From contig CAYHBB010000021.1 of assembly GCA_964354795.1 (NCBI GenBank), positions 1-57,247 of the forward strand: DNA of 57,247 bases. Reading direction: 5' to 3'. The notes beneath the pieces were generated by a model. It did no database searches and was not told the origin of the DNA. It saw only the letters and a program-made list of their open reading frames with translations. The DNA comes from an uncultured Planctomycetales bacterium. GTDB lineage: Bacteria; Omnitrophota; Gorgyraeia; Gygaellales; Profunditerraquicolaceae. The translations under genes and the position numbers were made by a program. Of this stretch, positions 13,314 to 56,182 are shown piece after piece (positions within the stretch are counted from its first letter, which is position 1; each line of letters starts with the position of its first letter).

Positions 13314-13357
13314 CACCCCGGCTTATAGGAACGCCGGGTGTTCCGCTTACTGCGTAA
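13314..13357 (+). repeat. Family-A two-hairpin element before gdhA RBS
   Basis: CACCCCGGC-ttataggaac-GCCGGGTG then TTCCGC-ttact-GCGTAA. Confidence 0.7.
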
Positions 13358-13367
13358 GGAGGAGAGT

Positions 13368-14705
13368 ATGTCGAAAAGAATCGAAGATTTTATGGCAAAG
13401 GTAGTAGAAAAAAACGCGGGTGAAAAGGAATTTCATCAGGCGGTGCAAGAGGTAGTCGAGTCATTGGCCCCATATATTGAAAAGAATCCCAAATATGATG
13501 ATGCCAAGATCCTGGAGAGGATGATTGAGCCGGAAAGGGTGATCATGTTTCGCGTGCCCTGGCTTAACGACAAGCAAGAGATCCAGGTCAACCGCGGATT
13601 CCGTATTGAGATGAGCAGTGCCATCGGGCCTTACAAGGGTGGATTACGATTTCATCCCAGCGTTAACTTAGGGATTTTAAAGTTTCTGGCTTTTGAGCAG
13701 GTCTTTAAAAACGCCCTTACTACGCTTCCTATGGGCGGCGGTAAGGGAGGTTCTGATTTTGATCCCAAGGGTAAATCAGATAATGAAGTGATGAAATTCT
13801 GTCAGAGCTTTATGACCGAGTTGCAAAGGCATATCGGCCCAGATACAGATGTTCCTGCCGGAGATATCGGTGTAGGCGGACGCGAGATCGGTTTTATGTA
13901 CGGCCAGTATAAAAGGCTGCGTAATGAATTTACCGGCGTACTTACCGGTAAAGGCCTAAATTGGGGCGGAAGCTTAATCCGGCCTGAAGCTACCGGATAC
14001 GGCTGCGTTTATTTTGTCCAGGAAATGCTTAAGACCAGGGGCCAGAGTTTGGAAGGCAAGGTCTGTGCGGTTTCCGGATCAGGAAATGTCGCCCAGTACA
14101 CTGTTGAGAAATTGCATCAGCTGGGAGCCAAGGTCGTAACACTCTCTGACTCTAACGGCTACATCTATGACAAAGACGGCATTGACCAAAAAGAGTTGGC
14201 TTGCGTGCTGGAGTTGAAGAATGTCAAGCGCGGCAGGATCAAGGAATGCGCTAAGGAATTCAAATGCGAATACTTCGATAATAAGAAACCCTGGGACGTT
14301 AAATGCGATATCGCTTTTCCAAGTGCCACACAGAACGAGATCGATGAGGAAGATGCCAAGACATTAGTGAAGAACGGCTGTATCGCCATCGGCGAGGGCG
14401 CGAATATGCCCAGCACTCCTGGTGCCGTGGAAGTCTTCCAGAAGGCAAAGATCCTATATGCCCCCGGCAAGGCAGCAAACGCCGGCGGGGTCGCGACCTC
14501 AGGATTAGAGATGTCGCAAAACAGCATGAGGCTCTCCTGGACACGTGAAGAGGTGGACAGGCGGCTGCATGACATCATGATCTCTATTCATGAGCAGTGC
14601 GTCAGATACGGCAAGGAAGCTAGCTACATCAATTACGTTAATGGCGCCAATATTGCGGGATTCGTCAAGATTGCGGACGCCATGATCGATCAGGGGTTGG
14701 TGTAA
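13368..14705 (+). CDS. gdhA: NADP-specific glutamate dehydrogenase
   Basis: GPYKGGLRFHPSVN, GGGKGGSDFDP, DVPAGDIGVG, RPEATGYG; AGGAGG RBS. Confidence 0.97.
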   Translation: MSKRIEDFMAKVVEKNAGEKEFHQAVQEVVESLAPYIEKNPKYDDAKILERMIEPERVIMFRVPWLNDKQEIQVNRGFRIEMSSAIGPYKGGLRFHPSVNLGILKFLAFEQVFKNALTTLPMGGGKGGSDFDPKGKSDNEVMKFCQSFMTELQRHIGPDTDVPAGDIGVGGREIGFMYGQYKRLRNEFTGVLTGKGLNWGGSLIRPEATGYGCVYFVQEMLKTRGQSLEGKVCAVSGSGNVAQYTVEKLHQLGAKVVTLSDSNGYIYDKDGIDQKELACVLELKNVKRGRIKECAKEFKCEYFDNKKPWDVKCDIAFPSATQNEIDEEDAKTLVKNGCIAIGEGANMPSTPGAVEVFQKAKILYAPGKAANAGGVATSGLEMSQNSMRLSWTREEVDRRLHDIMISIHEQCVRYGKEASYINYVNGANIAGFVKIADAMIDQGLV

Positions 14706-14715
14706 GAAATACGGC

Positions 14716-14744
14716 TTGACATAACAAGAGCCATGTGTTAATCT
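14716..14744 (+). promoter_or_regulatory. sigma70 promoter of nadE-sigma operon
   Basis: TTGACA-N17-TAATCT with TGTG extension. Confidence 0.7.
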
Positions 14745-14756
14745 TTGTTTAGGTAA

Positions 14757-14902
14757 GGCACAAAGTCAGTGCTTTAAAGGTAAGAACAAGGGGGCGTTCA
14801 AAAAACGCTCCCTTTTTCTTTGCTTTGGATTTTTAGCGCGGCAAAACGGATAATGACGTCCTTTTTTAGCAGGGCTTGCTAAGTGAGGACGTCGTTTTAT
14901 TT
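14757..14902 (+). promoter_or_regulatory. Double attenuator leader with two terminators, each overlapped by an ANTAR-like hairpin
   Basis: GAAC-aagggggc-GTTC overlapping AAGGGGGCGTT/AACGCTCCCTT+T-run; GGAT-aatgac-GTCC overlapping AATGACGTCCT/AGGACGTCGTT+TTATTT. Confidence 0.65.
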
Positions 14903-14915
14903 AGAGGAGGTAAAG

Positions 14916-53820: not shown

Positions 53821-53954
53821 CACCCGGCCTTAGCCCCTTCCTTAAAAGGTATTAGGAAGGGCTACCCCTCTGGGGTTAAAGGATAGGCCGGTGTCTCGTC
53901 CAGAAAGGACGCGCCCGCTGATCCTATAAAAGCGGGGCGCAGCTTTCTGCGGAA
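53821..53954. repeat. Nested and inverted family-A cluster in the rpsB leader
   Basis: CACCCGGCCT-t[AGCCCCTTCCT..AGGAAGGGCT ACCCCTCTGGGGT]taaaggat-AGGCCGGTG; then minus-strand copy GTCC..GGAC GCGCCCGCT..AGCGGGGCGC. Confidence 0.8.
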
Positions 53955-53970
53955 AAAGGGAGGTTCAAGA

Positions 53971-54870
53971 GTGCCATCAGACTTAATCAAGCAATTACTG
54001 GAAGCAGGAGTGCATTTCGGGCACCAGACCAAACGCTGGAACCCGAAAATGAAGAAATTCATCTTTGGTTCGCGTAGCGGAATTTACATTATCGATTTGG
54101 AGAAGACCGAGGAATGTATCAACAAAGCCCGGGATTTCCTGATGGATATAACCGCAAAAGGCGAGTTTGTGCTTTTTGTAGGCACAAAAAAACAGGCCCA
54201 GGAAGTGGTTTTTCAGGAGGCCAACCGTTGCGGGATGTACTACGTCACCGAGCGCTGGCCCGGCGGAATGCTGACTAATTTCGCCACCATCAAAAAGAGT
54301 ATCAGCCGCCTGAAAGAGATCGAGAAGATGAAGGTGGATGGGACTTATGAAAAGATCACCAAGAAAGAGATCTCCGGCCTGGAGAAGGAACTAGCCAAGC
54401 TTAAGAAGAATTTCATGGGTATTGTGCCTATGGAGCGCATGCCTAAGGCGATTTTTATCGTGGATACCAAAAAGGAAGAGACCGCGGTAAGTGAAGCCCG
54501 CAGGCTGGGTATTCCTATTGTGGCGTTGATTGACACTAATTCCAACCCGGACTTGATAGATTACCCTATCCCCGGCAATGACGACGCGACAAAATCCGTC
54601 AAGCTGGTGACTTCGCTTATGGCGGAGACGGTTCTGGAGGGAAGAAAGAAATTTCTGTCGTATCTATCCCAGGAAGGTGTTAAGGTAGAGGACAAAAAGG
54701 ATGAGGAAGGCCAGGAAATAGTGCTTCTTCCTGAGGAAGAGGCAGGGATAAAAGAGATCGAGGAGATCGTTGAGGCTACTCAGCCGTTGGATGCTGACGG
54801 AAAGTCGGTGAAAAAGTCCCACGTAAAGACGGTTGCTGATGATAAATCAAGAACAAGAAGAAAGGTATAA
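53971..54870 (+). CDS. rpsB: 30S ribosomal protein S2 with acidic/basic C-terminal tail
   Basis: [39 protein letters not shown] start after GGAGG. Confidence 0.98.
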
Positions 54871-54876
54871 GTAAAG

Positions 54877-55404
54877 ATGGCTGCTAATGTTGATCTGATC
54901 AAAGAGTTAAGGCATATGACCTTGGCAAGCGTTGCCCACTGCAAAAAAGCGCTTGAGGAGTCAAACGGAGACTTGAAGAAAGCGGCGGAATACCTGCGCA
55001 AGAAAGGCCTGGAAATCGCCGCTAATAAGCAGGACCGCACGGTGAAAGAAGGCCGCATTGAAGCCTATATCCACCACGGAAGCAAGATCGGTGTGCTTTT
55101 AGAGGTGAACTGCGAGTCGGATTTCGTGGCCCGCAACGAGGATTTTACTAGCTTCACCAAGGATGTGGCCATGCAGATAGCCGCATGCAGCCCCATCTAT
55201 ATTAAAAGAGAAGATATTCCGGCAGAGGTGTTGGAGCAGGAGAAGAACAAGGAAGATTTCTGCAAGAATCACTGCCTTCTGGAGCAGGCGTTTATTAAAG
55301 ATACAAGTTTGAGTATCAAGGATTATCTGGGCACAATCATCGGAAAACTCGGCGAGAATATCGTAGTTCGCAGATTTATAAGGTATAAAGTCGGGGAGTT
55401 ATGA
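54877..55404 (+). CDS. tsf: Elongation factor Ts (short form)
   Basis: IKELR..T....[24 protein letters not shown]. Confidence 0.95.
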
Positions 55405-56123
55405 GCAAGGCGGTTTACAAAAGGATCGTTCTGAAGCTCAGCGGCGAAGCGCTTCAGGGGGCAAAATCCCACGGAATAGACCATTCGGTCTTAGTATCTA
55501 TCTCCCGTCAGATAAAAGAGGTCAGGGATTTAGGCGTGGATGTGGCGGTGGTGTTGGGCGCGGGGAATATCTTCCGTGGCCAGGAGAATACCGCTTCACG
55601 CGGCCTGGATATGGATAGGTCTGTCGCAGACTATATGGGGATGCTTGCGACGATTATCAACGGCCTGGCTTTACAGGATGTTTTGGAGAAGACTGGAGTC
55701 CCTACCAGGGTAATGACCGCTATTGATATGGAGCGTATTGCCGAGCCGTATATCAGGCGTAGGGCCGTGCGGCATCTGGAAAAAGGCAGAGTAGTTATAT
55801 TTGTCGCTGGGACTGGGAATCCGTATTTTACAACCGATACCGCGGCTTCCCTTCGCGCCAAGGAAATCAATGCCGACGTGATTTTGAAAGCTACGAAAGT
55901 GGATGGGGTTTATACCGCCGATCCCGTTAAGGTTAAAAGTGCCAGAAAATTTGAGAAACTAAAATATATCGATGTGCTGAAAAAGGGCTTAAAGGTGATG
56001 GACGCTACTGCCATCAGCCTGTGCATGGATAATAACCTGCCGATAGTGGTTTTTAATCTGACTAAGATCGGAAATATCAAGCGCGTAGTCATGGGTGAAA
56101 GAATAGGGACTGTAGTTTCATAA
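55401..56123 (+). CDS. pyrH: UMP kinase
   Basis: [32 protein letters not shown]. Confidence 0.98.
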
Positions 56124-56140
56124 ATTTGCAGCTTTCTGCG

Positions 56141-56182
56141 CACCCCCAAACTTAATGGATAGTTTGGGGTGAGCTGGTGCTC
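56141..56182 (+). repeat. Family-A element before frr RBS
   Basis: CACCCCCAAACT-taatggat-AGTTTGGGGTG then GAGC-tggt-GCTC. Confidence 0.7.

Follow-up and report, generated by a model that had tools for sequence, protein, structure and literature searches.

A patchily distributed family of two-hairpin units, probably small non-autonomous mobile DNA, in an uncultured Omnitrophota bacterium

Introduction

Insertion sequences (IS) of the IS200/IS605 type move by a 'peel and paste' mechanism and have gene-less derivatives known as palindrome-associated transposable elements (PATEs), and among the bacterial miniature inverted-repeat transposable elements (MITEs) there are some with short duplications, e.g., Correia elements with TA. 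IS1397-type insertion sequences target the hairpin loops of repetitive extragenic palindromes (REPs), and at integron attC sites it is the folded strand with its extrahelical bases that is recognized, the stem sequence being free. The 5' stabilizer hairpins of the ompA type belong to single genes and are vertically inherited. REPs themselves are short palindromic units of 20–40 bp that fold as hairpins, imperfect and with a bulge in one group (PMC3733652 and PMC8266576), and they are mostly sited downstream of coding regions, where the neighboring genes are unidirectional or convergent (PMC3733652). Here, we describe a family of repeat units, 42–45 nt in length and each made of two abutting hairpins, in a 57,247 nt contig (CAYHBB010000021.1, or C21; the whole stretch is called the window) of an uncultured Omnitrophota bacterium.

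The window belongs to a 1.69 Mb metagenome-assembled genome (MAG) of 41 contigs that is 93% complete, and the nearest relatives with a name are MAGs of Candidatus Omnitrophota. In the comparisons below, genomes carry G-numbers, with G000 being the source genome and G002 a relative of ~91% identity. With a probability of about 70%, the copies represent a lineage-specific family of 42–45 nt non-autonomous mobile DNA units. A search of the literature, supplements excluded, found no such repeat described in Omnitrophota and no hairpin repeat abutting the Shine-Dalgarno (SD) sequence.

Detection and Architecture of the Units

Hairpin 1 alone was modeled, because MAFFT alignments spanning both hairpins were unstable, and hairpin 2 was handled by script. 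A covariance model built from eight window copies (R1) gave 168 matches at E ≤ 1 across 1,693,314 bases (the genome minus ~3.6 kb), and a second model (R2), trained on the best 150 R1 matches and run on the same bases, gave 181 matches at E ≤ 0.01, which correspond to 180 sites as one was counted twice in the overlap of two loci; hosts split by nested units are uncounted in R2. There are about 180 two-hairpin units in the genome, and the expectation in the initial annotation that a structure model would find a significant family was borne out. A looser descriptor was left out of the counts because of its high background (239 matches in the genome vs 76–93 in five simulated genomes). In the window there are 13 intact units plus two hosts (at 43596 and 53820) whose hairpin 1 is split by nested units, so that all of the roughly 15 copies first listed were recovered. 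A sequence-based repeat finder placed nine of these 15 in three unconnected families and missed the remaining six, in agreement with the earlier view that the family is recognizable by architecture and not by sequence. When the window was scanned against Rfam 15 at gathering score, the sole match was a tRNA and none fell on the units; the best sub-threshold match reached 19.6 bits (37.5 required), and a further Rfam search gave none.

Two abutting hairpins are present at every listed window position, and single-sequence folds of these copies each gave two adjacent hairpins, at −14.5 to −23.5 kcal/mol. Hairpin 1 is 27–31 nt long and has a foot of 3–4 bp, mostly (A/G)CAC...GTG(T/C), a bulge of a single base on the 5' side of the stem (C in 115 of the 121 distinct alignment rows used below), about six variable base pairs above the bulge, and a loop of 8–12 nt with the consensus TAWAGGAW. 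Hairpin 2 begins 0–1 nt after hairpin 1. With at least 4 bp and a start within 5 nt, it was found in 141 of 149 units, compared to 43% of shuffled sequences, and it has 71 distinct 5' arms. The constant two-hairpin architecture originally described, with its bulged arm, its loop and its abutting second hairpin, is confirmed.

Covariation was examined in an alignment of 150 rows, 121 of them distinct. Of the hairpin 1 cells, 95.6% were paired (69.1% in shuffled sequences and 31–44% in slid registers), with a covariation score of 0.78 vs 0.25. An alignment fitted to the model favors pairing, but the slid controls carry the same bias and are far lower. Both-sided, compensatory changes were seen in nine of the ten hairpin 1 pairs, and several pairs use all four Watson-Crick types (e.g., GC 39, CG 32, UA 26 and AU 24), which confirms that complementarity is kept despite changes in the stems. 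Among the 150 units there are 38 distinct upper 5' arms, and 27 of the 30 distinct perfect stems are only one base pair away from another.

Strongly kept base pairing would also be in keeping with a cis-acting RNA leader module (a 5' stabilizer, processing site, or standby site with an SD-like AGGA loop) that is maintained by transcript selection and spread by duplication, without being selfish. Mismatches in the eight inner pairs are rare, however, and G-T/T-G (9) are not in excess over A-C/C-A (12), so that a tolerance for wobble pairs, as would be specific to RNA, is not apparent in this comparison of low power. The absence of an Rfam family match likewise speaks against such a leader.

Gain, Loss and Distribution

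Insertion and loss involve entire units and occur at precisely defined positions. Contig C14 of G002 is collinear with window positions 21220–56777, and also with C22, in segments of 86–95% identity, and over ~72.5 kb there are 14 unit-bearing spacers that can be compared between G000 and G002 (one shared copy, missed by R2, was read by eye). Four of these spacers are alike, three differ in content, two are filled only in G000 and five only in G002. The differences consist of whole 42–45 nt blocks, exactly at loop or arm positions: a unit of subtype B (the subtypes are described in the next section), 45 nt including its triplet, between GGCC and TAATA; a D unit of 43 nt between TAATA and GGAAT; two additional C units of 44 nt; and one additional 44 nt block in the gltD spacer. 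A three-unit nest before rpsB occurs in G000 only and not in G002. Within an even closer strain, contigs in all four sediment metagenome runs examined join window position 43595 to 43863 with GG between. Over 4030 aligned letters, the contig with this empty allele in run X1 shows 27 differences, and this ~99.3% identical strain has TATA/GGAG (the slash marks the junction) in place of the 264–267 nt nest at 43596–43862. An orthologous subset of the same nest is present in G002, where both the host variant and the C unit are those of the window, so the simplest history is that the ~99.3% identical strain lost the entire nest or had its allele replaced.

At greater distance, the orthologous pyrH loci of 80 other species (593 kb) gave just two model matches, and the pyrH-frr spacer, where the window and G002 share the unit at 56141, has no unit in the eight other species aligned. 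Copy numbers were compared at E ≤ 0.01 among at most the best 150 candidates per genome. On this scale, G000 has 132 matches, G002 115, G001 58, G007 53 and G012 42, with 0–19 in the rest of their family (f1), which has matches in 17 of 18 genomes (1 to 115 each), and the other families of the order have one or two matches in three of 12 genomes. In a sample of the phylum, 12 of 151 genomes (G000 included) have a match at E ≤ 1e-4 among the best 48 candidates each, and the other 139 have none; at the same depth of 48 candidates, 6–13 matches were found in each of the three genomes of f29, another family of the class. The distribution is patchy and the copy number widely variable.

These comparisons mark the family as insertional DNA and not as an RNA leader under conservation. 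The initial annotation had held that fixation at orthologous positions in distant relatives, combined with a bias for the sense strand, would point to regulatory RNA; the bias exists (see below), but fixation is clearly not what was found, with ten of 14 spacers differing between G000 and G002 and orthologous sites empty in close as well as distant relatives. Its proposal of a non-autonomous mobile element gains support from these empty sites, from gain and loss between G000 and G002, from the strain without the nest, and from the precise nesting described next.

Subtypes and Insertion Sites

Reading all 150 units with their flanks led to the definition of four subtypes, A to D. Subtype A has the foot ACAC or GCAC, variable stems and a hairpin 2 of the form NNGC-TTNCT-GCNN, with AAGGAGG immediately after. 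A units sit directly 5' of a GGAG-like sequence, which is mostly the SD core; for three units, it is instead where a tRNA-Gly gene has its 5' end. Subtype B (33 copies) begins with GCCCCTTCC, has the hairpin 2 CCCC-TGT-GGGG, and is flanked by identical triplets (TTA, TAA, or the rarer TAG and TTG) in 26 of the 33 copies; removing the unit together with one triplet restores a normal host loop. B units insert with a 3 bp duplication, either at the first loop bases or at the TTA of another repeat. Subtype C begins with GC(A/G)CCCCAGC, has the hairpin 2 GTCC-TTTTTA-GGAC, and lies mostly antisense within the 5' arm of hairpin 2 of an A unit, following AGAAAGC on its own strand (C flanks were read by eye). 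In the C units, the hairpin 1 loop is complementary to hairpin 2 (AAAAGG vs CCTTTT), a relationship that fails for many A units. Subtype D has a constant hairpin 1 (GCACCTTGGCA TAAAGGAT TGCCAAGTGC) and a variable hairpin 2. All 16 retrieved D copies are in the hairpin 1 loop of another unit, between TANN and GGA(T/A), and all are flanked by complementary host arms; the retrieval pattern demanded GGA on the right, but the pairing of the host arms is independent of that demand. No duplication is seen at A, C or D units. The freely varying stems noted at the outset are thus a feature of subtype A and of the family overall, whereas each of the other three subtypes has a conserved sequence.

The 3 bp duplication at TTA or TAA in B copies is what would be expected of classical MITEs, i.e., deletion derivatives of DDE-type insertion sequences moved by cut-and-paste with target-site duplication. 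It is very improbable that the family is of this kind, as the units are without terminal inverted repeats, the two hairpins being local palindromes, and the A, C and D units show no duplication. The DDE families PF01609, PF13359, PF13358 and PF00665 had no match in the genome, which at 93% completeness is not proof of their absence.

Tandem neighbors sharing a hairpin 2 variant are found at window positions 27675/27719, at C29 2434/2479 and at C2 13051/13093, and in the tandem array of three C units at 43715–43846 (Table 1) the first two differ from the third by compensatory G-C vs A-T pairs. Arrays of this type, and compensatory differences between adjacent copies, could be produced without a dedicated enzyme if replication template switching between similar hairpins copied and corrected them. 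As an account of the family this is extremely improbable, given that identical unit sequences recur at numerous unlinked sites, each subtype with exact junctions of its own, and that one subtype makes a 3 bp duplication.

Gene Context and Target Motif

Positional and flank statistics use 150 units, and the intergenic classes come from a crude gene caller based on open reading frames (ORFs). Co-directional spacers hold 78 sense and 31 antisense units, with a further 11 units in divergent and seven in convergent spacers, two at contig edges and 21 called 'inside' ORFs, mostly short or mis-started ones. An SD followed by the start codon of an ORF that is 60 aa or longer lies within 60 nt 3' of 62 of the 150 units (25 of 150 in the opposite-strand control), and in 41 of these 62 the SD begins 12–15 nt past hairpin 1, which is directly after hairpin 2; counted by array, 43 of 99 hold an SD-abutting unit (split hosts uncounted). 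Genes for abundant proteins are among those preceded by units (gdhA, glnB, rpsB, frr and an EF-G-like gene). When orientation is scored against the gene strand that dominates locally, the co-oriented and opposed units number 38:4 for A, 15:2 for B, 9:2 for D, 13:23 for C and 30:10 for unclassified units. Gene strand bias is extreme in this genome, with 1114 of 1162 genes (at least 150 aa) on the locally dominant strand. None of 42 SD-abutting units precedes a minority-strand gene, where 1.7 would be expected, so that the test has no power.

These data bear directly on the RNA leader alternative. The excess of sense units, the fixed distance to the SD, the kind of genes that follow and the likeness of the loop to the local SD context all favor it. 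Against this, C units are mostly antisense, and units also occur in convergent and divergent spacers and inside each other. Taken with the turnover described above, an RNA leader appears unlikely as the nature of the family, although the units may have a secondary, RNA-level effect on the transcript.

The empty allele (TATA/GGAG), the D site (TAWA/GGAW) and the flanks of A units (A/T-rich on the left, GGAG on the right) represent one motif, so that the hairpin 1 loop is itself a copy of the chromosomal target, which explains why units accumulate within each other. Placement at TAWA/GGA is without duplication for both A and D, and the empty allele is one A short of expectation. The motif is similar to the typical surroundings of the SD in the genome, where A is favored at −1 and −2 before GGAG. 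All three tRNA-Gly genes, with the 5' ends GCGGGAG, GCGAGAG and GCGAGCG, have a unit on the same strand 12 nt upstream, whereas none of the 37 other tRNA genes does, which suggests that targeting is by sequence rather than by translation function. The tRNA-Gly leader is not conserved: of 30 relatives, G002, G004 and G013 are the only ones in which the alignment reaches far into the unit. The units at the tRNA-Gly genes (GCC, CCC and UCC; C22:43755–43875, C33:15980–16093 and C34:22435–22546) are a special variant that ends at the first bases of the tRNA and has AGGT as the loop of hairpin 2. In the ribBA leader (C37:158521–158737) there are four hairpin 1 matches, on both strands.

Search for a Mobilizing Enzyme

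Two Y1 (HUH) genes, at C40:21957–22298 and C17:462–794, are present in the genome, and their best NCBIfam match is the REP-associated tyrosine transposase (RAYT), at 79.5 and 56.1 bits with a cut-off of 80. Their presence would be consistent with the units being ordinary REPs, or the paired form known as REPIN, that serve as substrates of the genome's own RAYT (TnpA-REP) genes. The palindrome of hairpin 1 is imperfect and bulged, which is the form that the E. coli enzyme needs (PMC8266576), and A hosts with an antisense C unit form inverted pairs. The initial annotation had suggested looking for such genes flanked by the motif. However, both are bracketed by a different, inverted repeat (GGGACGGTTCT), and only the Y1 gene on C17 has a two-hairpin unit, a single one in its leader. 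The REP tags are also missing: GTAG was found within 8 nt upstream of one and downstream of none of the 150 units, and CGTC upstream of none and downstream of eight, where it comes from hairpin 2 of neighboring C units. The units lie upstream of genes at the SD, and REPs are described as lying mostly downstream of coding regions (PMC3733652). The number of Y1 genes in 31 genomes does not follow the number of units. A family of ordinary REPs or REPINs is accordingly judged quite improbable, and the link to HUH enzymes stays an analogy.

The GGGACGGTTCT repeat consists of 33–38 nt arms that begin with this sequence and form inverted pairs. It has 34 exact 11-mer matches in the genome loci, and a further pair at window 48882–48958; it also occurs at L001 (1375–1385 and 1974–1984) and L002 (147–157 and 951–961). 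Since it flanks both Y1 genes, it looks like the genome's true pair of the REPIN/RAYT type. In G002, the spacer orthologous to window ~48900 has two-hairpin units instead of this repeat.

Other classes of enzyme gave no clear candidate. IS110 and TnpB-type genes had no match in the 93% complete genome; the genes beside the largest arrays (EF-G-like, ribBA, transporters and DnaJ) include no nuclease or transposase; and none of the three tyrosine recombinase genes in the genome adjoins a unit. A stand-alone reverse transcriptase of 486 aa, with RVT_1 as its only domain (C24:3994–5454; L057), was considered and rejected as the mobilizer, and was not found in the unit-rich genomes G001, G007 and G012. 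Among 31 genomes, a close homolog (91% identity) occurs only in G002 besides G000, with weak matches of 25–31% identity in G019, G023 and G024. The 205 aa ORF 3' of this gene has no family match.

Several observations weigh against mobile DNA as the explanation. No mobilizing gene for the units was identified in the 93% complete genome, from which insertion sequences may have been left unassembled, and no transposition intermediate was seen. The bracketing of both RAYT-like genes by another repeat, and Y1 gene counts that do not follow unit counts, belong here as well. The 3 bp duplication of B is unlike Y1 'peel and paste', so the subtypes may not share a chemistry. The empty allele is one A short of clean excision, and recombination could be its source. 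Finally, the sense bias and SD abutment could reflect selection on the mRNA and not the choice of target, and gene strand cannot be separated from replication direction with so many genes on the locally dominant strand.

Proposed Mechanism and Significance

If the units are mobile DNA, an enzyme acting in trans would read the folded single strand by its foot, bulge and loop. An enzyme of this type, tolerating any stem that pairs, would explain the compensatory variation. The prime suspect would be a Y1 (HUH) enzyme of the RAYT or IS200 kind, by analogy with the folded strand, the bulge, the fixed flank, the block-wise loss and the lack of duplication at A, C and D. The position just upstream of an intact ribosome-binding site may be a tolerated niche, and a unit may provide the mRNA with a protective 5' structure as a side effect. 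A bolder and doubtful proposal, which we regard as tentative, is that of a new site-specific transposon system that reads structure and homes to an A/U-rich plus GGAG sequence before genes, carries a copy of its target in its own loop, and depends on an enzyme that is unlinked and not yet recognizable. If this were true, Omnitrophota would hold an undescribed mechanism of single-strand DNA insertion, with specificity derived from the geometry of foot, bulge and loop.

The units make up much of the intergenic DNA before housekeeping genes in a widespread, uncultivated phylum. As mimics of regulatory leaders they will produce false leads when leaders or riboswitches are searched for; they also break assemblies and escape sequence-based repeat annotation, while their rapid gain and loss provides a fine-scale strain marker. 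The puzzle is how a 43 nt element is inserted with base precision at the ribosome-binding site and in its own loop when the genome has hardly any recognizable transposases, and the answer could reveal a new hairpin-reading DNA enzyme. They also raise the question of whether hairpins flush with the SD are neutral, or alter mRNA stability or translation across the genome.

Units and Other Features of the Window

The units of the window are given in Table 1, where nested units are placed after their hosts.

Table 1. Two-hairpin units and composites in the window, with the start of the corresponding R1/R2 match (minus strand matches marked −).
Feature	Position	Strand	Match start	Details
A unit, gltA-like (stop 13311)/gdhA spacer	13313–13357	+	13313	39.3 bits; hairpin 1 13314–13340, hairpin 2 13341–13357, GGAGG 13358, ATG 13368
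A unit before glnB (P-II)	18492–18534	+	18492	36.4 bits; hairpin 1 18493–18519, hairpin 2 18520–18534, GGAGG 18535, ATG 18547
First tandem A unit after gltD stop	27675–27718	+	27675	Common to G002
Second tandem A unit	27719–27763	+	27719	Abuts GGGG, then ATG 27775; 44 nt missing in G002
B-like unit (GCCCCTTCC...)	33487–33527	+	33487	TAG on both flanks; present in G002 too
Composite nest, A host with inserts	43596–43859	+		Host hairpin 1: 5' arm 43596–43604, loop remnant and 3' arm 43698–43710; hairpin 2 remnant 43711–43714 plus 43847–43859; abuts GGAAG 43860, ATG 43870
B unit, 42 nt, at start of 43596 host loop	43608–43649	+	43608	Flanks TCA and TAA; absent in G002
D unit, 43 nt, in 43596 host loop	43655–43697	+	43655	42.2 bits; absent in G002
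Three tandem 44 nt C units in hairpin 2 of 43596 host	43715–43846	− (antisense)	43728(−), 43772(−), 43816(−)	Only the third unit (43803–43846) in G002
Composite before rpsB, A host	53820–53954	+		Hairpin 1 arms 53820–53830 and 53885–53894; hairpin 2 remnant 53941–53954; followed by AAAGGGAGG, then GTG 53971; entire composite absent in G002
B unit in 53820 host loop	53833–53875	+	53833	TTA on both sides
C unit in 5' arm of hairpin 2 of 53820 host	53898–53941	− (antisense)	53910(−)	29.4 bits
Older hairpin 2 remnant beside the 56141 unit	56128–56140			
A unit, pyrH/frr spacer	56141–56182	+	56142	AAGGAGG, then ATG 56195

Two other features of the window were observed. At 56763–57000, directly upstream of tRNA-Lys (56993–57065), there are three to four tandem repeats of ~55–57 nt, each starting like the 5' end of tRNA-Lys, and one copy is skipped in the X1 metagenome contig (joint 56889 to 56957). 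An intergenic segment of ~375 nt at ~51445–51819, which has no Rfam match, is inverted in G002, where it carries a two-hairpin unit, and a joint of the 'opposite strands' type at 51445/51819 is found in runs X1 and X3; it may be an invertible segment.

Comparison with Known Systems

The closest likeness in form is to REPs, bacterial interspersed mosaic elements (BIMEs) and REPINs, which are also short, high-copy, extragenic and non-autonomous hairpins with a bulge, come as several sequence families per genome alongside RAYT-like genes, and are thought to be read as folded single-stranded DNA. The two-hairpin units differ from REPs and REPINs in being without the unpaired GTAG or CGTC tag, in having an obligatory second hairpin, in nesting in each other's loops, and in lying directly 5' of the SD, with only seven of 150 in convergent spacers; the RAYT-like genes here are bracketed by the GGGACGGTTCT repeat. 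With IS200/IS605 elements and PATEs, the units share hairpin-bearing ends and apparently also a fixed short target beside one end, the lack of duplication (A, C and D) and a block-wise loss that would restore the site; a further likeness is the strong bias in their orientation, with the genes of this genome following replication. They differ from IS200/IS605 in being only 42–45 nt long, with two hairpins unlike each other and, in B, a 3 bp duplication, and no full-length parent with tnpA or tnpB was found in the 93% complete MAG.

Like the Correia-type MITEs, the units are small, non-autonomous, intergenic and presumably co-transcribed with their neighbors, and subtype B duplicates a TWA-like triplet, but they are far smaller, lack terminal inverted repeats, and keep their architecture while the stem sequence varies. 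Insertion into the loop of a repeated palindrome recalls IS1397, except that the inserting element is here a 43 nt hairpin unit of the same family. Integron attC sites are similar in that a folded strand is recognized together with its extrahelical bases, as proposed for the units, but cassette arrays are absent here and the units have no integrase gene beside them. The ompA-type hairpins are similar in placing a stable hairpin near the SD at the 5' side of a cistron, whereas the units described here are ~180 interchangeable copies that differ between close strains.

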